Shown here piece after piece: positions 4,892 through 35,883 of a stretch of DNA of 64,000 nucleotides. How positions within the stretch are numbered: the stretch's first letter is position 1; each line of letters begins with the position of its first letter. Made by a program: the position numbers and the translations under genes. Source of the stretch: Escherichia coli (GTDB lineage Bacteria; Pseudomonadota; Gammaproteobacteria; Enterobacterales; Enterobacteriaceae); assembly GCF_003334355.1 (NCBI RefSeq), contig NZ_QOWP01000020.1. The stretch is one strand, 5' to 3'. Under the pieces are notes generated by a model. The model saw only the letters and a list, made by a program, of their open reading frames with translations, had not been told where the DNA came from and made no database searches.

Positions 4892-5968
4892 TTACCCCCT
4901 GAAGCCCGGCGGAATTTCGTTATCCGGTTCAGAAATATGATTCACACAACGCTGGTTGTTCGTGCCGCTTACCGGGAGCAACCAGGGGTTCTCAAAATTC
5001 CGGTCCGGTCCAAAAAACGTCGTCGCTCGCTGAACAAATTCCGTTCCCGTTTTCCCGGTAGCCGCCAAGTATCTTGCGTAACGCCTCACGCCATCCAGCA
5101 TGGCCTCTGGTGGCACCCCCTCGCGTAATCTGGCCTTCCAGGCACTGAAAGCGGATTTCTTCGGGTTTGCCCCAGCACGCAACGGGTACTCCCGCCAGAC
5201 CTGTTCGAACACATCCGGATAATCCACTCGTCCCACAGACTGCCCGGTGTTTTCCGGGACTACCCGATCGGCTTCCCGCTGAATGGCGGAATCGGCTTCA
5301 GGCTGCTGCAGTTGGTGTGATTGCTCCGCCCTTGCGGTCATCACCTGCTGCACAGCGCCCGAATCGGCTTTCAGCGCATACGCTGAATCGGCTTCCGGTG
5401 TCGTGCCTGCTGGCTGACCAAGATTGACGGTCTGAACATCCCCTGCCTGGTTCGTGGCGTTTTTTACGCCATGGACCATAGTGTTTTGATCTTCTTGATC
5501 TGTATCTTTATCTGTATCTTTATCTGTCGTGACTCGTCGTGACATGTGCGTGACATTTCGTGACGCGCCGTGACAATCGCCATTTTGTTCCCGCTTTCTT
5601 TCCCTCTCTCGCTGCGCCCTCTTGCGCTCTGCAGGAGATTTTGCGGTTTGCGAAATATTGCCGTTGTCCTCTTTAAGCACCTGGCGTTTTTCCCATCCAG
5701 TGATTAAATCACCATCAAGTACCCGCCCCTGCATCGTCTGCAAAATTGAATCAATTACCTCTTCTGTCACGTCGAGCGCACTTGCCAAATCTTCTGTCGT
5801 GACATCAATGTGACCTCGCGTGACATTTCGTGACGCGCTCACCAGGAGGTGGATATACACTGCCATCACTGTTGCAATTGGCTGTCCTGACACCCTGGCA
5901 ATTGTTCGCCACTTAGGGTCATTTGGCATGTCATGCCATAATCTGAGCCAGGCGTTAGCCATACTCAC
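4892..5968 (-). CDS. Prophage replication protein, YdaU-like (DUF1376-type, lambda O analogue)
   Basis: 358-aa ORF. Its position after the cro/cII-like genes matches the lambdoid replication module. It starts MSMANAWLRLWHDMPNDPKWR. The C-terminal segment YPDVFEQVWREYPLRAGANPKKSAFSAWKARL is typical of prophage replication proteins. The gene contains phased iterons. The family name is from memory. Confidence 0.6.
   Translation of the reverse strand: MSMANAWLRLWHDMPNDPKWRTIARVSGQPIATVMAVYIHLLVSASRNVTRGHIDVTTEDLASALDVTEEVIDSILQTMQGRVLDGDLITGWEKRQVLKEDNGNISQTAKSPAERKRAQRERERKREQNGDCHGASRNVTHMSRRVTTDKDTDKDTDQEDQNTMVHGVKNATNQAGDVQTVNLGQPAGTTPEADSAYALKADSGAVQQVMTARAEQSHQLQQPEADSAIQREADRVVPENTGQSVGRVDYPDVFEQVWREYPLRAGANPKKSAFSAWKARLREGVPPEAMLDGVRRYARYLAATGKTGTEFVQRATTFFGPDRNFENPWLLPVSGTNNQRCVNHISEPDNEIPPGFRG
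5499..5574. repeat. Putative prophage origin, part 1: AT-rich 12-bp tandem (tctgtatcttta x2.4, 5499-5527) abutting five phased CGTGAC iterons
   Basis: CGTGAC occurs at 5528, 5538, 5549, 5559 and 5569, giving spacings of 10/11/10/10 bp. All copies are in the same orientation and lie inside the replication gene. Confidence 0.6.
5793..5838. repeat. Putative prophage origin, part 2: second cluster of four phased (C)GTGAC iterons
   Basis: Copies at 5798, 5809 (tgtgac), 5819 and 5829. The 46-nt block 5793-5838 is a diverged copy of 5523-5568, exactly 270 bp away. It includes a perfect 21-nt repeat gcgtgacatttcgtgacgcgc (5548-5568 and 5818-5838). Confidence 0.6.
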
Positions 5969-7799: not shown

Positions 7800-8284
7800 C
7801 GATTAAAACGTCTACTCCTGCTGTTCCAGAATAACTTCATAAAATGGGAGTATTTTTCGGTGACGAGATAATAAGAACAGTTTGCGCTATCACTCTGATG
7901 TTGAATGATGCCCTTCCGTTCTAATTTTTTCATAACCGGGTTACGGCAAGGAGAAGTGATAATAAGATTTCCTGTTTTAAGGAAATCTTTAAATACAGCG
8001 ATTTCTTTCTCAGATAAACGAAGCAATACTCGTTGCTCTGGTAGTAATGAATAATGCTTTTGAATATGTGCTCGCAATCTTGAGAAGGAAATGGCGACCA
8101 CGAAAGAAAAGGCAAAAACGATAATCTGAAAGAGCCAAGGTATTTCAGTATAAGCATTGAATGCGACAGTAAACTCTTTCGGTATCAGCCAGAGAGTGAG
8201 ACCAAAAATGATAATCGTATACATAAGTCTTTCGAGTGGCTCGTTAGCAAAAAGTTTCAACAATGGAGTAAATACATCCAACAT
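7796..8284 (-). CDS. sieB: Superinfection exclusion protein SieB
   Basis: Track ORF 7796..8407 contains the K-12 SieB sequence from Met42 (MLDVFTPLLKLFANEPLERLMY...). This gives the known 162-aa product. Confidence 0.9.
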   Translation of the reverse strand: MLDVFTPLLKLFANEPLERLMYTIIIFGLTLWLIPKEFTVAFNAYTEIPWLFQIIVFAFSFVVAISFSRLRAHIQKHYSLLPEQRVLLRLSEKEIAVFKDFLKTGNLIITSPCRNPVMKKLERKGIIQHQSDSANCSYYLVTEKYSHFMKLFWNSRSRRFNR

Positions 8285-30912: not shown

Positions 30913-32526
30913 TCAATGCTTCACAATATACATAGTCCGACTGTACGCCACATCTTCAGGATTATTAATGGGATAACCTTTCAGCCACGGCTTGATTAAT
31001 CGTCCATTGGTATATTGATAAATTGGTGCAATCGGTGCTTGCTCCATGAGGATTTTTTCTGCCGCGTTGTAATCGGCATTACGCGCTTTAACGGTATTTT
31101 CCGTCGATGCCTGGGCCAGAACTTTGTCATATGCCGGATTGTTAAAGCGTGAAATATTTCCTGAATGCGTTGACGTTAATAATGTCAGGAAAGTGGAGGG
31201 TTCATTATAATCCCCCACCCACGAGGCGCGGATAACATCAAAATTGCCGGTGTTACGGCTATCGATATAGGTTTTCCATTCCTGATTTTGCAATTTAACA
31301 TCTACGCCAAGGTTCTTTTTCCACATCGATGCTACAGCAATCGCAATTTTTTGATGGTTTTCTGAAGTGTTATACAAAAGCGTCAGCTTCAGCGGTTTTT
31401 GCGGACCATAACCAGCTGCGCTCAACAAAGTTTTTGCCTGCGCATTCAGTTCTTCCTGACTCATTTGTTCAAACGGCGAAGGTTCCGGCGTAAATCCCGC
31501 GGTAACATCTGGTGTAAAATGCCACGCTGGCTTTTCGCCCGTCCCTAATACTTTTTCGGTCATCAGGCGGCGATCTATCGTCATACTTAATGCCAGACGA
31601 ACGCGCTGATCTGCCGTCGGCCCTTTTTGCGTGTTAAACGCATAATAATAGGTCCCGAGCTGCGGCGGCGTATAAACCTGCCCCGGAATATCCTTCAACA
31701 GCTTCTGATACATATTTTTCGGGAAGGATTCGGTGATATCAATATCCCCCGCGAGGTAACGCTTAGTGGCTGCGGATTCCTGATTAATTGGCAGGAAGGT
31801 CACTTTTTGCAGTACCGTTTTGGCGTTATCCCAATAATGGGTATTCGGTACCACGACCAGTTTTTCATTGACTACGCGCTCTTTAAGAACATAAGCGCCA
31901 TTGCCGATCAGATTTCCGGGTTTCGTCCACTCTTTACCGCTTTCTACGTTGGCTTTTTGCACCGGGAAGAAGGCAAAGTTAGCGGTTAAATTCACAAACC
32001 ACGGCAACGGTTTATCAAGCTGAATTTTCAAAGTATGGGCATCAACTGCGGTGACGCCAAGCTGGTCAGGCGTAGCTTTACCATCAATAATCGCCTGTGC
32101 GTTGTTGATTCCCGCCAGCGCGGCAAACCATGCAAATGGCGACAATGTTTTTGGGTCCACCAGACGTTGCCAGCTGTAGACAAAATCTTGCGCCGTTACC
32201 GGTGTGCCATCCGCCCATTTTGCGTTATCGCGCAGGGTAAAAGTCCAGATACGGTTGTCATTACTTTTCCACTGAGTCGCAACGCCGGGGACAATCTCCC
32301 CTTTTTCGTTCTGATTCACCAGACCTTCAAACAGATCGCGAATGACCTGAATCTCTGGCAGGCCCACGGCTTTAGCGGGATCCAGCGACGCAGGCTCATC
32401 TTTAATGTGGCGCACCAGCTCCTGCTTCTCTGCCAGTACTGTGCCGCTCGGAACTTCTGCAGCATACGAAAGAGAAATGCTGCTGACCAACAGCGCACAA
32501 CACGTGACTGAAACAGAGTGCTTCAT
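30913..32526 (-). CDS. mppA: Periplasmic murein tripeptide-binding protein MppA
   Basis: 537-aa product from MKHSVSVTCCALLVSSISLSYAAEVPSG... It is an OppA paralogue. Confidence 0.95.
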   Translation of the reverse strand: MKHSVSVTCCALLVSSISLSYAAEVPSGTVLAEKQELVRHIKDEPASLDPAKAVGLPEIQVIRDLFEGLVNQNEKGEIVPGVATQWKSNDNRIWTFTLRDNAKWADGTPVTAQDFVYSWQRLVDPKTLSPFAWFAALAGINNAQAIIDGKATPDQLGVTAVDAHTLKIQLDKPLPWFVNLTANFAFFPVQKANVESGKEWTKPGNLIGNGAYVLKERVVNEKLVVVPNTHYWDNAKTVLQKVTFLPINQESAATKRYLAGDIDITESFPKNMYQKLLKDIPGQVYTPPQLGTYYYAFNTQKGPTADQRVRLALSMTIDRRLMTEKVLGTGEKPAWHFTPDVTAGFTPEPSPFEQMSQEELNAQAKTLLSAAGYGPQKPLKLTLLYNTSENHQKIAIAVASMWKKNLGVDVKLQNQEWKTYIDSRNTGNFDVIRASWVGDYNEPSTFLTLLTSTHSGNISRFNNPAYDKVLAQASTENTVKARNADYNAAEKILMEQAPIAPIYQYTNGRLIKPWLKGYPINNPEDVAYSRTMYIVKH

Positions 32527-32583
32527 AAGTTTCCCTCTAACCGACATTAAAATTGATGCGTAATTATTTGTTTCGCCTTAAAG

Positions 32584-32620
32584 AAATGCAAACAACTTCC
32601 ATCAAAAAAGTGACAAAGGA
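32584..32620. repeat. 37-bp direct repeat, copy 1 (upstream of mppA)
   Basis: aaatgcaaacaacttccatcaaaaaagtgacaaagga. 32/37 nt are identical to 35030-35066. Confidence 0.8.
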
Positions 32621-32862
32621 AGCATCAAATGTTTTAAGTATCAATATATCAAATCAGATTTAGTGTAAATAATAGTCTCCAAAATGCGGTAAAGCACATA
32701 GAACTCCGAACACTACGTTCGGGCTTCGCACGTTCAAACCCGTTTTCGGTATCATAATCAGCATCTGTCGCCATTGTACGAAGAATAAAAAATGACCAAA
32801 ACGTTGAAAGGAACTGAGAATACGTTAAGAGAAGAATTAAATTAATGTATCAGCAAGTAGTG

Positions 32863-33762
32863 CTAAACAGCACCTTTATACTTCAGCCTATCTATAAATA
32901 ATGAGAATGCCGAGCCAGCATGTCGACGGTGTGGATAGTACAGGTGATAACCGGGTAAATCTGGTGTGAATTTATCCAAAACACGTATCAGTTTTTTTTC
33001 TTTAATAGCCCGCTCAACCTGATCATAAGGTAGATACGCCAATCCATGCCCATCAATTGCAGCATCAATGATCAGGTCTATCGTATTCAGTAAAAGCTGA
33101 CCTTCCATGCGAACACGAACTTCACGTCCACCGCGTATTAATCTCCAGCGATTTGCTGTACCCGATGTGGGAAGATACAAATTAATTGCCTGATGATCTA
33201 TTAATTGTGACACTGACGTTGGAACACTTCGGCGAGAAAAATAATCCGGTGAGCCAACAATAGCCATTGGTATATCTGGCCCGATTCGAATGGCGATCAT
33301 ATCTTTATCCATCTCCCCACCCAGACGGACGCCTGCATCAAAACGTTCAGAAACGACATCGGTCAAACCATAATCAATGGTGAGCTGAATATCAATTTCA
33401 GGATGCGATTTCAGGAATGTGCGCATTGCTGGTAACAATATCGTTTTTGCTGCATGTTCTACAGTAGTAATACGTATTGTCCCGGATGGGCGGTTCTGCA
33501 GATCGCTCAGGGATGCCATGGCTGAATCTATGTCATGCAACATAGGGCCAAGAACAGACAAAAGATGCTCGCCCGCTTCAGTTGGAACAACGCTGCGCGT
33601 GGTTCGCGTCAGAAGCCGCAATCCCAATCGTTCTTCTATACGACGCACTATCTGGCTTAAAGCTGACTGCGCCATGCTCAGGCGGGCTGCTGCACGAGTG
33701 AAGCTACGCTCCTCTGCAACGACGACAAACGCCATCAGATCAGCGATTTCTTCACGCTTCAT
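32863..33762 (-). CDS. pgrR: LysR-family regulator PgrR (YcjZ)
   Basis: 299-aa ORF with a LysR HTH, divergent from ycjY. Confidence 0.9.
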   Translation of the reverse strand: MKREEIADLMAFVVVAEERSFTRAAARLSMAQSALSQIVRRIEERLGLRLLTRTTRSVVPTEAGEHLLSVLGPMLHDIDSAMASLSDLQNRPSGTIRITTVEHAAKTILLPAMRTFLKSHPEIDIQLTIDYGLTDVVSERFDAGVRLGGEMDKDMIAIRIGPDIPMAIVGSPDYFSRRSVPTSVSQLIDHQAINLYLPTSGTANRWRLIRGGREVRVRMEGQLLLNTIDLIIDAAIDGHGLAYLPYDQVERAIKEKKLIRVLDKFTPDLPGYHLYYPHRRHAGSAFSLFIDRLKYKGAV

Positions 33763-33899
33763 TCAGTATCTCCATGCAATCTATTAATCATTTAAATGAT
33801 AGGTCTAATCATGATTTTGGGTCTAATCAACTTAATGATCAATATCTATAGTGATATCACCAACCGTTAAAACGAACCGACAACTCCATGAGGAACGGA

Positions 33900-34820
33900 A
33901 TGATGAATAATAAAGTCAGCTTCACTAACAGCAATAATCCAACCATCTCTTTGTCTGCAGTGATCTATTTCCCTCCAAAATTTGATGAAACCCGTCAGTA
34001 TCAGGCAATTGTGTTATCTCACCCAGGTGGGGGCGTTAAAGAACAAACGGCCGGAACCTATGCCAAAAAACTGGCGGAAAAGGGATTTGTCACTATTGCT
34101 TATGACGCATCTTATCAAGGTGAAAGTGGCGGCGAGCCGCGTCAGTTAGAAAACCCATACATTCGTACTGAAGACATCAGTGCCGTGATTGATTACCTGA
34201 CAACGCTTTCTTATGTCGACAATACCCGAATTGGTGCGATGGGAATTTGTGCCGGTGCAGGATATACAGCCAATGCTGCAATTCAGGATCGCCGCATCAA
34301 GGCCATCGGTACCGTTAGTGCGGTCAATATTGGTTCGATATTCCGTAATGGTTGGGAAAACAATGTGAAATCTATTGATGCCCTGCCATACGTTGAAGCG
34401 GGTTCAAACGCCAGAACCAGCGATATTAGCAGCGGAGAATACGCCATTATGCCACTGGCACCAATGAAGGAGTCCGATGCGCCGAACGAAGAACTGCGTC
34501 AGGCCTGGGAGTATTACCACACCCCTCGCGCGCAGTATCCAACAGCACCGGGTTACGCTACTTTGCGCAGCCTTAACCAGATTATTACCTATGATGCTTA
34601 CCATATGGCGGAAGTGTACCTGACTCAGCCGACGCAGATTGTGGCGGGCAGCCAGGCAGGGAGCAAATGGATGAGTGACGACCTGTACGATCGAGCATCA
34701 AGCCAGGATAAACGCTATCACATTGTTGAAGGCGCAAACCATATGGATCTTTATGACGGCAAAGCCTATGTGGCTGAAGCAATTTCAGTATTAGCTCCGT
34801 TCTTTGAGGAAACTCTGTAA
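33900..34820 (+). CDS. ycjY: Predicted alpha/beta hydrolase YcjY
   Basis: The track ORF is 310 aa. The K-12 product is 306 aa (start MMNNKVSF...). Confidence 0.85.
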   Translation: MMNNKVSFTNSNNPTISLSAVIYFPPKFDETRQYQAIVLSHPGGGVKEQTAGTYAKKLAEKGFVTIAYDASYQGESGGEPRQLENPYIRTEDISAVIDYLTTLSYVDNTRIGAMGICAGAGYTANAAIQDRRIKAIGTVSAVNIGSIFRNGWENNVKSIDALPYVEAGSNARTSDISSGEYAIMPLAPMKESDAPNEELRQAWEYYHTPRAQYPTAPGYATLRSLNQIITYDAYHMAEVYLTQPTQIVAGSQAGSKWMSDDLYDRASSQDKRYHIVEGANHMDLYDGKAYVAEAISVLAPFFEETL

Positions 34821-34890
34821 TGAAACATATTCAAATCCGCAATAGTGATATGGCCTGGCATATTGCTGCCAATAATCTGGGATAATTTTC

Positions 34891-35073
34891 ATGAAAAATG
34901 TACTGATTCTTGGTGCTGGCGGTCAGATAGCCCGCCATGTGATTAATCAACTGGCAGATAAGCAAACCATTAAACAAACTTTATTTGCCCGTCAGCCAGC
35001 AAAAATCCACAAACCCTATCCAACTAATAAAATGCAAACAACTTCCGGCAAAAAAGTGATACAAGATCGATGA
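34891..35073 (+). pseudogene. ymjC: Truncated NAD(P)-binding (Rossmann) gene remnant, ymjC-like
   Basis: The 60-aa ORF starts with a classical dinucleotide-binding motif (MKNVLILGAGGQIARHV) but ends after 60 codons. The divergence point coincides with the 37-bp repeat. Confidence 0.6.
35030..35066. repeat. 37-bp direct repeat, copy 2 (upstream of mpaA, inside the ymjC remnant)
   Basis: aaatgcaaacaacttccggcaaaaaagtgatacaaga. See copy 1. Confidence 0.8.
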
Positions 35074-35154
35074 CATAGCGTTGAAGAAAAGGATTTGATA
35101 ATCCGCAAAATTTGCACAACACTGCCTGTAATACTTCCTGAACCAGAGACGATC

Positions 35155-35857
35155 ATGACCGTAACCCGCCCACGCGCCGAACGCGGCGCATTTCCGCCCG
35201 GAACAGAACATTACGGACGTTCATTATTGGGCGCGCCGTTAATCTGGTTTCCTGCCCCTGCAGCCAGCCGCGAAAGTGGTTTGATTCTGGCTGGCACTCA
35301 CGGTGATGAAAACTCTTCGGTCGTCACGCTCTCCTGTGCTCTGCGGACGTTGACACCTTCTTTGCGCCGTCATCATGTGGTGCTGTGTGTGAATCCTGAC
35401 GGCTGCCAGTTGGGGTTACGGGCCAATGCTAATGGTGTGGATTTAAACAGAAACTTTCCGGCGGCGAACTGGAAGGAAGGTGAAACCGTTTATCGCTGGA
35501 ACAGCGCCGCTGAAGAACGCGATGTCGTATTACTGACAGGTGACAAACCTGGCTCCGAACCTGAAACCCAGGCGCTGTGCCAGCTTATACACCGCATTCA
35601 ACCTGCCTGGGTGGTCTCATTCCACGATCCACTGGCCTGTATTGAAGATCCCAGACACAGCGAATTAGGCGAATGGCTGGCTCAGGCGTTTGAATTGCCT
35701 CTGGTAACCAGCGTCGGTTATGAAACGCCTGGCTCTTTCGGCAGTTGGTGTGCAGATCTGAACTTGCATTGCATCACCGCAGAGTTTCCGCCCATCTCCT
35801 CCGACGAAGCCAGCGAAAAATATCTCTTTGCGATGGCAAACTTGCTGCGCTGGCATC

Positions 35858-35883
<26 letters not shown>
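35155..35883 (+). CDS. mpaA: Murein tripeptide amidase MpaA
   Basis: 242-aa product from MTVTRPRAERGAFPPGTEHYGRSLLGAPLIWFPAP... Confidence 0.9.

Follow-up and report, generated by a model that had tools for sequence, protein, structure and literature searches.

The repeat pair between mppA and mpaA

What does a 37-bp direct repeat on either side of pgrR, ycjY and ymjC' record in the E. coli chromosome: the insertion of foreign DNA between mppA and mpaA, or a regulatory box shared by these two genes? Both readings had been put forward in an initial annotation of the locus. We addressed the question in a 64-kb window (the whole stretch of E. coli DNA analysed), in which the native genes either side of the presumed insertion site are mppA, encoding a murein tripeptide binding protein, to the left (30913..32526, minus strand; ORF list, RefSeq annotation of the identical locus, tblastn) and mpaA, encoding a murein tripeptide amidase, to the right (35155..35883, plus strand; ORF list and the same RefSeq annotation).

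Sequence reading and a repeat search confirmed the geometry first described. Copy 1 (AAATGCAAACAACTTCCATCAAAAAAGTGACAAAGGA; 32584-32620, plus strand) and copy 2 (AAATGCAAACAACTTCCGGCAAAAAAGTGATACAAGA; 35030-35066, plus strand) are direct repeats with 32/37 identical positions and starts 2446 nt apart. Upstream of mppA (minus strand, ATG at 32526), copy 1 occupies nt 58-94 and aligns with the single box of genomes in which the site is empty. Upstream of mpaA (ATG at 35155), copy 2 occupies nt 89-125 and has the same sequence as the one box of Escherichia sp. MOD1-EC7003. Homology to full-length ymjC stops at 35028/35029, directly ahead of copy 2, as had also been noticed. The heptamer ttatttg, previously taken as the remains of a longer, decayed homology, did not hold up in that role; its second occurrence (34980-34986) falls within the ymjC coding sequence, ~710 nt from copy 2 in strains with an intact ymjC, and it is therefore a chance heptamer. 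The length of the duplication is 30-49 nt (30 nt is the minimum defensible and ~49 nt the maximum). The final 7 nt of the 37-bp box match at just 4-5 of 7 positions between the copies, and in full-length alleles a gapped 10/13 match runs leftward from copy 2.

The 30-nt core of the repeat, AAATGCAAACAACTTCCNNCAAAAAAGTGA, occurred exactly twice in the 64-kb window with three mismatches tolerated, with no occurrences expected (100 shuffles). The box was found in 5419 of 5426 complete E. coli genomes, at a median of two and a maximum of four places per genome, and is thus neither a sequence of many unrelated loci nor one that lacks conservation within E. coli, the two circumstances against which the initial annotation had set its reading. 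No Rfam family was found at the box. A dispersed intergenic repeat family (REP/BIME, ERIC) was ruled out by the two places per genome and the lack of a match to a curated family. That the similarity of the copies reflects chance, or membership of the box in some REP- or ERIC-like family, draws on the A-rich sequence and nothing further, and given the shuffling result, the genome counts, the Rfam result and an exact collinearity with the empty site, we consider it next to impossible.

Empty sites in related species

The comparison set comprised 80 species loci retrieved with MpaA, with E. albertii, E. fergusonii and S. enterica/S. bongori not among them. In 72 of these 80 loci, all from other Enterobacteriaceae, mppA lies next to mpaA in divergent orientation, and ~180-205 nt separate the two genes. 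The species with adjacent genes include E. ruysiae, E. whittamii, two further Escherichia lineages, Citrobacter, Enterobacter, Leclercia and Kluyvera. The pgrR-ycjY-ymjC block was located between the two genes in none of the 72 species, which represent more than 15 genera. A box-like sequence was detected at the empty site of the closer relatives only, and every time as a single copy.

Four other Escherichia lineages have a 182-bp spacer with one box, and the single box was seen in loci L005, L007, L009 and L010 as well as in empty-site E. coli. The native left flank in the window (32527..32583), 57 nt of ancestral mppA-mpaA spacer, aligns collinearly with the spacers of L005, L007 and L009, which hold a single copy, and the native right flank (35067..35154), a further 88 nt of ancestral spacer, is recognized by the same collinearity and by conservation in the 72 species. 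Left flank (57 nt), box (37 nt) and right flank (88 nt) add up to 182 nt, exactly the spacer length of L005, L007 and L009, and this identifies the repeat as a target-site duplication on the two sides of inserted DNA. Between copies 1 and 2 there are 4-5 differences in 37 positions, compared to 0-7 between the copies and the single boxes of Escherichia and 7-11 between the copies and those of Citrobacter. The duplication is young, its copies being closer to each other than to the Citrobacter boxes.

Recombination between the copies within E. coli

A one-piece empty site was detected in 173 of the 5426 complete E. coli genomes, a count of genomes and not of independent events. The empty site of strain CP131_Sichuan was identical to the window at 1001 of 1001 positions after a simulated crossover at box positions 20-30. 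The ancestral type of left flank was present in only 18 genomes. These genomes indicate that the repeats recombine and that the whole block is occasionally deleted precisely, restoring the single-copy spacer; some of the GG-type empty sites could stem from allele import and not from excision.

The dinucleotide 'AT' of copy 1 is also present in copy 2 of 60 block-bearing genomes, an apparent gene conversion that carried sequence from copy 1 to copy 2. These 60 genomes weaken the chimeric box (AT...TACAAGA) as proof of a crossover point, and it was dropped as such in favour of the 1001/1001 match. The longest stretches in which the two copies agree without interruption measure 17 and 11 nt. In its likeness to short-repeat deletion and conversion in bacterial chromosomes, the locus loses the DNA between 37-bp imperfect repeats 2.4-4 kb apart; this is the expected behaviour of such repeats, observed here among natural strains and not under assay conditions.

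Together, the single-copy empty sites in 72 species, the exact sum of 57 + 37 + 88 = 182 nt and the natural excision products bear out the first of the two proposals, and we conclude that the repeats are very probably the scar of an old insertion whose copies have since recombined. In the ancestor of E. coli, mppA and mpaA would have stood back to back around a 182-bp divergent promoter region with one 37-bp box. Foreign DNA of ~4 kb, with pgrR, genes for two alpha/beta hydrolases and one for an NmrA-type SDR, would then have entered the spacer, with 37 bp now on either side.

Gene content and stepwise decay of the block

The inserted foreign block in the window (32621..35029) is a reduced, K-12-type form of 2409 nt, delimited by its absence in the 72 species, its G+C content and a related cassette on Klebsiella plasmids. 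The fullest form of the insert in E. coli measures 3971 nt (L002). Its G+C content is 44.6-44.7% compared to 49.8% for the window. At the left of the block, the LysR-type regulator gene pgrR (ycjZ; 32863..33762, minus strand) was identified from the ORF list, the RefSeq annotation and the Pfam domains HTH_1 and LysR_substrate in its homologues; PgrR homologues in Klebsiella, Raoultella and Kluyvera are 87-89% identical. A divergent spacer (33763..33899) separates pgrR from the alpha/beta hydrolase gene ycjY (33900..34820, plus strand; ORF list, RefSeq annotation).

Two gene remnants follow on the plus strand. The first, ymjD (34820..34885), retains the initial ~19 codons of a gene for a second alpha/beta hydrolase. 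L002-type strains have this gene intact; here an internal deletion of ~0.9 kb left only the remnant. The second, ymjC' (34891..35028), is what remains of an NmrA-type SDR gene, namely the 46 codons at its start out of 212 in the intact form (L001/L002-type strains). A K-12-type deletion of 665 nt, with its junction at 35026..35029 (AAT/AATA microhomology), took the 3' part of ymjC, a terminator-like hairpin and the remaining tail of the insert, and its endpoint lies 0-5 nt from copy 2. The insert decayed stepwise, with the second hydrolase gene reduced to ymjD and ymjC cut short in the K-12 type by the second deletion. Presence or absence of ymjC or of the block in pan-genome or GWAS work (e.g., PMC9602453) reflects these deletions and not independent gain.

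Relatives and origin of the block

A four-gene cassette encoding a LysR regulator, two hydrolases and an SDR occurs on Klebsiella plasmids with 79% nucleotide identity to the insert, and relatives of the cassette occur in other chromosomal contexts too. The right tail of the E. coli insert matches the cassette as far as the start codon of the next gene and then breaks. The E. coli block represents one piece of a larger accessory cassette. Searches of a plasmid collection and a protein database for a close donor returned relatives at only ~79% DNA and ~88% protein identity. These relationships point to a horizontal arrival of pgrR, a gene named for peptidoglycan recycling, within a hydrolase/oxidoreductase cassette.

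The same data bear on the converse history, in which the block would be ancestral at this site in Enterobacteriaceae and the single-copy state would have arisen by repeated deletion between the repeats. Deletion through the repeats does happen within E. coli. This history is nevertheless extremely improbable, as the block is missing from this site in all 72 species, which span more than 15 genera, the two copies are far more alike than the orthologous boxes of different genera, the G+C content of the block is lower, and its relatives are found in unrelated contexts and on plasmids.

Mechanism of insertion

The insert contains no transposase or other mobility gene, its genes being those for the LysR regulator, the two alpha/beta hydrolases and the SDR. 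No terminal inverted repeats were found at its ends, and no integrase remnant was found within it; tblastn with a recombinase associated with the cassette elsewhere gave no match better than E = 4. The 241-nt left end and the 165-183-nt right tail of the insert have no homology to the native site, and a longer hidden duplication was rejected on these grounds. Target duplications made by transposases measure 2-14 bp and flank terminal inverted repeats. The locus shares with transposons and IS elements the doubling of the target sequence around the insert, and differs from them in the 37-bp length of the duplication and in having neither inverted repeats nor a transposase.

Integrative islands and prophages offer a closer parallel. 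As at their attL and attR sites, direct repeats surround acquired DNA, the empty site has a single copy, and precise excision restores that single site. The repeats could accordingly be the attL and attR of a tyrosine-recombinase islet whose integrase gene was deleted later, an origin suggested by the flanking direct repeats, tens of bp long as is typical of att sites around an islet, and by the cassette itself, which adjoins a 200-aa tyrosine recombinase in Kluyvera and Salmonella and in Kluyvera L096 has 23-nt direct repeats on both sides. The Kluyvera repeats are, however, unrelated to the box and the 23-mer is absent from the window, 5 of 6 other contexts had no long direct repeats flanking the cassette, and no attP-like box (37-mer, up to 13 mismatches) was found beside the cassette in the 8 other contexts sampled. 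Neither an integrase nor any trace of such a gene is present in any form of the E. coli block. At its right-hand junction the insert runs into the next cassette gene instead of stopping at an element boundary, and the target is neither a tRNA gene nor the 3' end of a gene. The natural excision products also fit homologous exchange at varying points of the repeat and not at a fixed core. On this evidence, we regard a lost integrase as an unlikely source of the repeats.

An insert with neither integrase, transposase nor inverted repeats, flanked by a box unique in the genome, fits an 'insertion with long target duplication' (ILTD). This class was described by the Kobayashi group for restriction-modification (R-M) genes (Furuta et al., 2010, PMC2853133), with an original report in H. 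pylori (ref. 37 within PMC2853133). The likeness covers an insert below 20 kb (3971 nt at its fullest) with deviating G+C content and no mobility gene, two direct repeats that both align with one single-copy sequence of the empty-site genome, and a repeat sequence unique to the locus (median of two places per genome). A duplication of more than 30 bp also characterizes ILTD, which the 37 bp found here exceed narrowly, 30 bp being the minimum defensible. Published ILTD repeats are 46-47 bp long and 44/46 to 47/47 identical (PMC2853133), compared to 37 bp with 32-33/37 identical positions at this locus. The cargo differs as well, being a metabolic LysR/hydrolase/SDR cassette with no R-M genes; the presence of both R and M genes was a screening rule of the earlier study and not a mechanistic requirement (PMC2853133). 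As the block carries no R-M genes, the restriction-attack role proposed for ILTD cannot apply. The locus therefore resembles ILTD in structure and stands outside the cargo type that defines the class.

Two further differences concern age and host. The event studied here is old and nearly fixed in E. coli, compared to the strain polymorphisms of ILTD, and it took place in E. coli, a host without natural competence as usually understood. ILTD has been documented so far mainly for R-M genes of naturally competent bacteria. For the mechanism of the insertion, we infer a recombinase-free event in which two illegitimate joins were made at target positions 37 bp apart, an account whose chances we judge to be even.

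Conserved elements and candidate promoters in the spacer

The left flank holds a conserved block, GTAATTATTTGTTTCG, with positions 83-100% conserved in the 72 species. Within the box, AAATGCAAA is 83-100% conserved and a TGA is 100% conserved across the same species. The conserved blocks of the right flank, GAAA..ATTTGATAA and TTTTGCACAACACTGC, are kept even where other rearrangements struck the spacer, and are presumed to form the core promoter/operator of mpaA. A consensus scan returned a candidate sigma-70 promoter of mppA, TTTGCA-18-AATAAT (32563..32592, minus strand), with the putative -35 hexamer in the left end of copy 1 and both hexamers within blocks conserved across the 72 species. 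A sigma-54 reading of the conserved TTTGCACAACACTGCC block, made by eye, was dropped because its GG-GC spacing is one nucleotide short. A search for an mppA promoter, a transcription start site or this duplication found nothing among the papers covered.

The box carries conserved elements of the promoter region, and both genes were thereby left with upstream sequences of their own after the insertion. Copy 1 retains the mppA-proximal conserved element and copy 2 the mpaA-proximal one. The 94 nt kept upstream of mppA, including the conserved -35/-10-like pair, and the 125 nt kept upstream of mpaA would amount to functional retention at both genes.

PgrR and the question of a shared operator

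The second proposal of the initial annotation, a cis-regulatory box common to mppA and mpaA, fared less well. It stands in so far as the duplicated segment contains two phylogenetically conserved elements from the promoter region between the divergent genes of the ancestor, and falls short where PgrR is concerned. In PMC5934670, the genomic-SELEX targets of PgrR at this locus are placed in the ycjY/ycjZ spacer and neither upstream of mppA nor upstream of mpaA. That spacer, between pgrR and ycjY within the insert, is distinct from the box, and the box was rejected as a PgrR operator since the published list names the ycjY/ycjZ spacer only (PMC5934670).

More broadly, both copies could have been kept as an operator through which one regulator, PgrR or another, co-regulates mppA and mpaA. 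The conservation of the two box elements across 72 species is compatible with such a role, as is the lack of any difference between copy 2 and the single MOD1-EC7003 box, and PMC5934670 reports PgrR control of ycjY-ymjDC-mpaA. Descent by duplication, however, fully accounts for the similarity of the copies, the SELEX list is without the upstream regions of mppA and mpaA (PMC5934670), and the ancestral state was a single box serving a divergent pair. The initial annotation did not mention that mppA and mpaA diverge, by which the box takes opposite orientations at the two genes. Moreover, all copies 1 carry T31C at an 83%-conserved position and copy 1 varies at five more, which looks like relaxed constraint on the half distal to mppA. 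A shared operator is accordingly a quite improbable reason for the presence of two copies, and the insertion scar remains our reading of the pair.

Regulatory consequences and significance

RpoD promoters have been given for ycjY-ymjDC and for pgrR (PMC3946193). Loss of the terminator-like hairpin is consistent with read-through into mpaA from the PgrR-controlled ycjY promoter, and this read-through, a consequence of position, is the simplest account of PgrR control over mpaA. On the more far-reaching view set out below, the insertion put mpaA downstream of a newly gained, PgrR-controlled operon, PgrR itself would be a recent horizontal import, and the ~3% of E. coli from which the block has been excised would be natural revertants of the rewiring. 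An insertion also explains an oddity of the K-12 map, in which the functionally coupled murein-tripeptide genes mppA and mpaA are split by an unrelated regulator/hydrolase block and the pseudogenes ymjD and ymjC'.

The locus is a well-documented case of a known kind of event, and it extends ILTD as a structural class to non-R-M cargo in E. coli. The more far-reaching view, which we offer tentatively and hold to be possible rather than probable, is that an ILTD-type recombinase-free pathway also moves ordinary metabolic and regulatory cassettes in Enterobacteriaceae, that the 37-bp duplication made the insertion tolerable here by leaving both promoters intact, and that the link between PgrR and mpaA is an accident of landing. 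The locus presents a natural series that runs from the empty site through the full insert and two stepwise deletions to precise excision, and this series can serve to study the tolerance of insertions into divergent promoters, the wiring of acquired regulators and recombination between 37-bp repeats in wild E. coli.

Repeat Pair Between mppA and mpaA

In this E. coli K-12-like chromosome segment, mppA (30913-32526, minus strand) and mpaA (35155-35883, plus strand) are transcribed divergently, with pgrR (32863-33762, minus strand), ycjY (33900-34820, plus strand) and, between ycjY and mpaA, fragments of ymjD and ymjC (ymjC') lying in the interval. A repeat search ranked first among the region's direct repeats a 37-bp box at 32584-32620 (copy 1) and 35030-35066 (copy 2), spaced 2446 nt apart with 32 of 37 positions matching; because the two genes diverge, the repeat faces opposite ways relative to them. 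Its 30-nt core occurred exactly twice in the 64 kb with three mismatches allowed, and in none of 100 shuffles. Among 5426 complete E. coli genomes, 5419 contained the 37-mer, with a median of two and a maximum of four sites each, and it is therefore locus-specific and conserved; neither a spread over many unrelated loci nor a lack of conservation in E. coli, the outcomes that the initial annotation had set against its own proposal, was seen.

Empty Sites in Other Species

An MpaA query was used to fetch 80 loci of other species, onto which six proteins of the region were mapped. mppA and mpaA were immediate divergent neighbours in 72 species, with a spacer of ~180-205 nt; these include E. ruysiae, E. 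whittamii and two more Escherichia lineages, together with many Citrobacter, Enterobacter, Leclercia, Lelliottia, Kluyvera, Trabulsiella and others, and none of the 72 carried pgrR, ycjY or ymjC at the mppA-mpaA site. The spacer was exactly 182 nt with one box in these four Escherichia lineages. In the window, the native left flank (57 nt), one box (37 nt) and the native right flank (88 nt) likewise add up to 182, the two arrangements are collinear on both sides, and homology to the empty site runs out where copy 1 ends on its right and restarts where copy 2 begins on its left. As read from the sequence, this pattern is the signature of an insertion with 37 bp of target duplicated, and the initial annotation was right in its first reading, a scar left by insertion of the pgrR-ycjY-ymjC block. 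Mismatches number 4-5 between the two copies, 0-7 against the Escherichia single copies and 7-11 against the Citrobacter boxes, so the duplication is specific to Escherichia and is not ancient. Estimates of its length range from 30 to 49 nt; over the final 7 nt of the box there are matches at 4-5 of 7 positions, or at 6 of 7 against the E. ruysiae form, and a gapped 10/13 match extends leftward from copy 2 in intact alleles.

Source of the Block and Mode of Insertion

The block has a G+C content of 44.6-44.7% compared to 49.8% for the window. Klebsiella plasmids carry the same four genes in the same order, at ~79% nucleotide identity and in different surroundings, and a six-gene cluster (the four genes plus an adh_short SDR and an OYE flavin reductase) was found in Raoultella, Kluyvera and Salmonella chromosomes. 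Homology of the E. coli insert's right tail reaches the start codon of the fifth cluster gene and breaks there, which marks the insert as a fragment cut from the larger cluster and not a defined element. No integrase or transposase genes and no integrase remnant were found in the insert, no terminal inverted repeats at its ends, and no box-like sequence beside the related cassette in eight other contexts.

The locus has the structure described for insertion with long target duplication, namely repeats >30 bp that align to a single-copy target and are unique in the genome, an insert <20 kb and no mobility genes (Furuta et al., 2010, PMC2853133). Repeats in the published cases measure 46-47 bp (PMC2853133), and the sole difference from that class lies in the cargo, which in this case is something other than a restriction-modification system. 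We infer as the likeliest mechanism that a linear fragment would have been joined illegitimately twice, the joins being staggered by 37 bp on the target. The main rival, integration by a tyrosine recombinase that was later lost, could draw on the 200-aa tyrosine recombinase that adjoins the cassette in Salmonella and Kluyvera and on the 23-nt repeats that bracket it in one Kluyvera locus, but the 23-nt repeats show no relation to the box and do not occur in the window, and we consider this route improbable.

The Kluyvera cryocrescens repeat (GTCTGCTCTGAGCGAGGAGCGGA; L096, 4278-4300, 8642-8664 and 9094-9116) is direct and brackets cassette and recombinase together. Polymorphic-toxin immunity genes (Imm63, DUF3916) also neighbour the LysR/hydrolase/SDR cassette in Kluyvera and Salmonella, and three Kluyvera contexts (L096, L094, L098) appear shuffled relative to each other. 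Similar short direct-orientation sequences were observed at the insert ends, AGCATCAAATG on the left (32621-32631) and GCACATCAATGA on the right (4783-4795 in L001, an E. coli locus with full-length ymjC); the likeness may be chance or a trace of fragment cutting or circularisation.

Decay, Excision and Apparent Gene Conversion in E. coli

Three insert forms were found among E. coli strains. The fullest (L002, a subset of sampled strains) has 3971 nt between the boxes, with pgrR followed by ycjY, a second alpha/beta hydrolase gene and a 212-codon NmrA-type SDR gene (ymjC). In the L001-type, ~0.9 kb is gone inside the second hydrolase gene and a 21-codon ymjD remains. In the K-12-type a further deletion of 665 nt, with AAT/AATA microhomology at its junction, starts at ymjC codon 47 and comes to within 0-5 nt of copy 2; the ymjC frame had been noted to degenerate exactly at copy 2, which is borne out and is explained by where this deletion ends. 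The deletion also took an 11-pair terminator-like hairpin just 3' of ymjC (L001 4650-4674), a loss that fits the published ycjY-ymjDC-mpaA operon (PMC5934670; PMC3946193).

The annotated small ORF ymjD (34820-34885) is the first ~19 codons of the second hydrolase gene, fused near its stop by the ~0.9 kb deletion; L002-type strains have the whole gene (310 aa). The 665-nt deletion junction and the first bases of copy 2 together create a promoter-like TCCACA-16-TAAAAT (35006-35033, plus strand) upstream of mpaA. The end of this deletion coincides, to within 0-5 nt, with the insert/target junction.

A query spanning the empty site found mppA and mpaA adjacent in one piece in 173 of the 5426 genomes, four of which were examined. 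CP131_Sichuan agreed at 1001/1001 positions with a simulated excision of the block from the window, the crossover lying at box positions 20-30, and other strains showed 13-44 differences from that simulated product. The empty sites of GF4-3 and 2014C-3075 lie in different backgrounds and are flanked by E. coli-type sequence, and that of Z0117EC0005 has an ancestral-type left flank, present in only 18 genomes. Secondary excision, in at least three backgrounds, therefore accounts for most of the empty sites (about 155), and a minority look like never-inserted or imported alleles.

A copy-1-specific AT at box positions 18-19 (all outgroups have GG there, as does copy 1 of Escherichia sp. E1V33) was joined to a copy-2-type right end in 99 genomes; 60 of these retain the block with AT in copy 2, which we read as gene conversion with copy 1 as donor and copy 2 as recipient, and the other ~39 are empty sites. 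The E1V33 locus (L008) is itself E. ruysiae-like on the mppA side and in copy 1 (5370-5470; TTTCTCCTTGAAG, AAATGCAAAT, GG) and E. coli-like in copy 2 (7877-7913) and its K-12-type truncated ymjC, a mosaic that suggests a recombination breakpoint inside the locus.

Regulatory Content of the Box and Flanks

When the 72 single-copy spacers were aligned, the left flank showed one conserved block, GTAATTATTTGTTTCG, and the right flank two, GAAA..ATTTGATAA and TTTTGCACAACACTGC. Within the box, the block at positions 1-15, AAATGCAAA..CTT, is 83-100% conserved, and the one at positions 28-31, TGAT, 100/100/100/83%. Read on the mppA strand, GTAATTATTTGTTTCG and AAATGCAAA..CTT together form TTTGCA-18-AATAAT, a plausible candidate mppA promoter with its -35 inside copy 1; a literature search found no transcription start data. 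After the duplication, mppA thus retains 94 nt and mpaA 125 nt of native upstream sequence. All copy 1 sequences have T31C within the conserved TGAT and five more positions vary, and copy 2 is invariant among the strains examined except for the AT variant, a pattern that points to a loss of constraint on that half of copy 1 which is now distal to mpaA.

The second reading of the repeat, a shared cis-regulatory box for mppA and mpaA, possibly bound by PgrR (the LysR-type regulator encoded by the block), was not supported in that form. In the published PgrR SELEX list the ycjY/ycjZ spacer is named, but neither of the regions upstream of mppA and mpaA (PMC5934670), so the designation "PgrR box" is unsupported. 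An imperfect dyad, ATTTGTTTC-N8-GAAATGCAAA, lies in the mppA promoter region (32568-32594); both arms are conserved in the 72 species, the right arm alone is inside the duplicated box, and the dyad may be the operator of some native regulator.

Other Rearrangements of the Spacer

Type strains of Salmonella enterica subsp. arizonae and diarizonae (L024 5449-7677 and the matching part of L027) carry a different islet in the mppA-mpaA spacer, three genes (Pfam CDtoxinA, Exo_endo_phos, CDtoxinA; ~41% G+C) making up a cdtA-cdtB-cdtC cytolethal distending toxin operon. The islet has taken the place of the spacer's mppA-proximal half, with its right boundary in or near the box region and without flanking duplication. 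A third independent rearrangement was observed in Scandinavium spp. and Citrobacter sp. OP27 (L071, L079, L082; ~7880-8000), where mppA is missing within 8 kb, an ORF of >1586 aa (GH94/cyclic-glucan-synthase-like) ends ~120 nt upstream of mpaA, and two mpaA-proximal conserved blocks alone survive. The spacer appears to be a recurrent rearrangement site at which the mpaA-proximal conserved blocks are always spared. Secondary IS-associated disruptions were seen in Shigella flexneri SFBU1023 (L006; mppA and copy 1 missing, pgrR truncated at residue 145, the second hydrolase split by ~1.4 kb) and in E. coli RCAD0514 (IS1 copies within the region).

Significance of the Locus

The repeat pair is a genuine and well-resolved insertion scar at which recombination continues. 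The kind of event is known and this clean example is new, the searchable literature having yielded no prior description. Both PgrR and its connection with mpaA stem from the insertion of horizontally acquired DNA into a divergent promoter, the locus offers a natural series from insertion through decay to excision, and long-target-duplication insertions are extended to non-restriction-modification cargo in E. coli.
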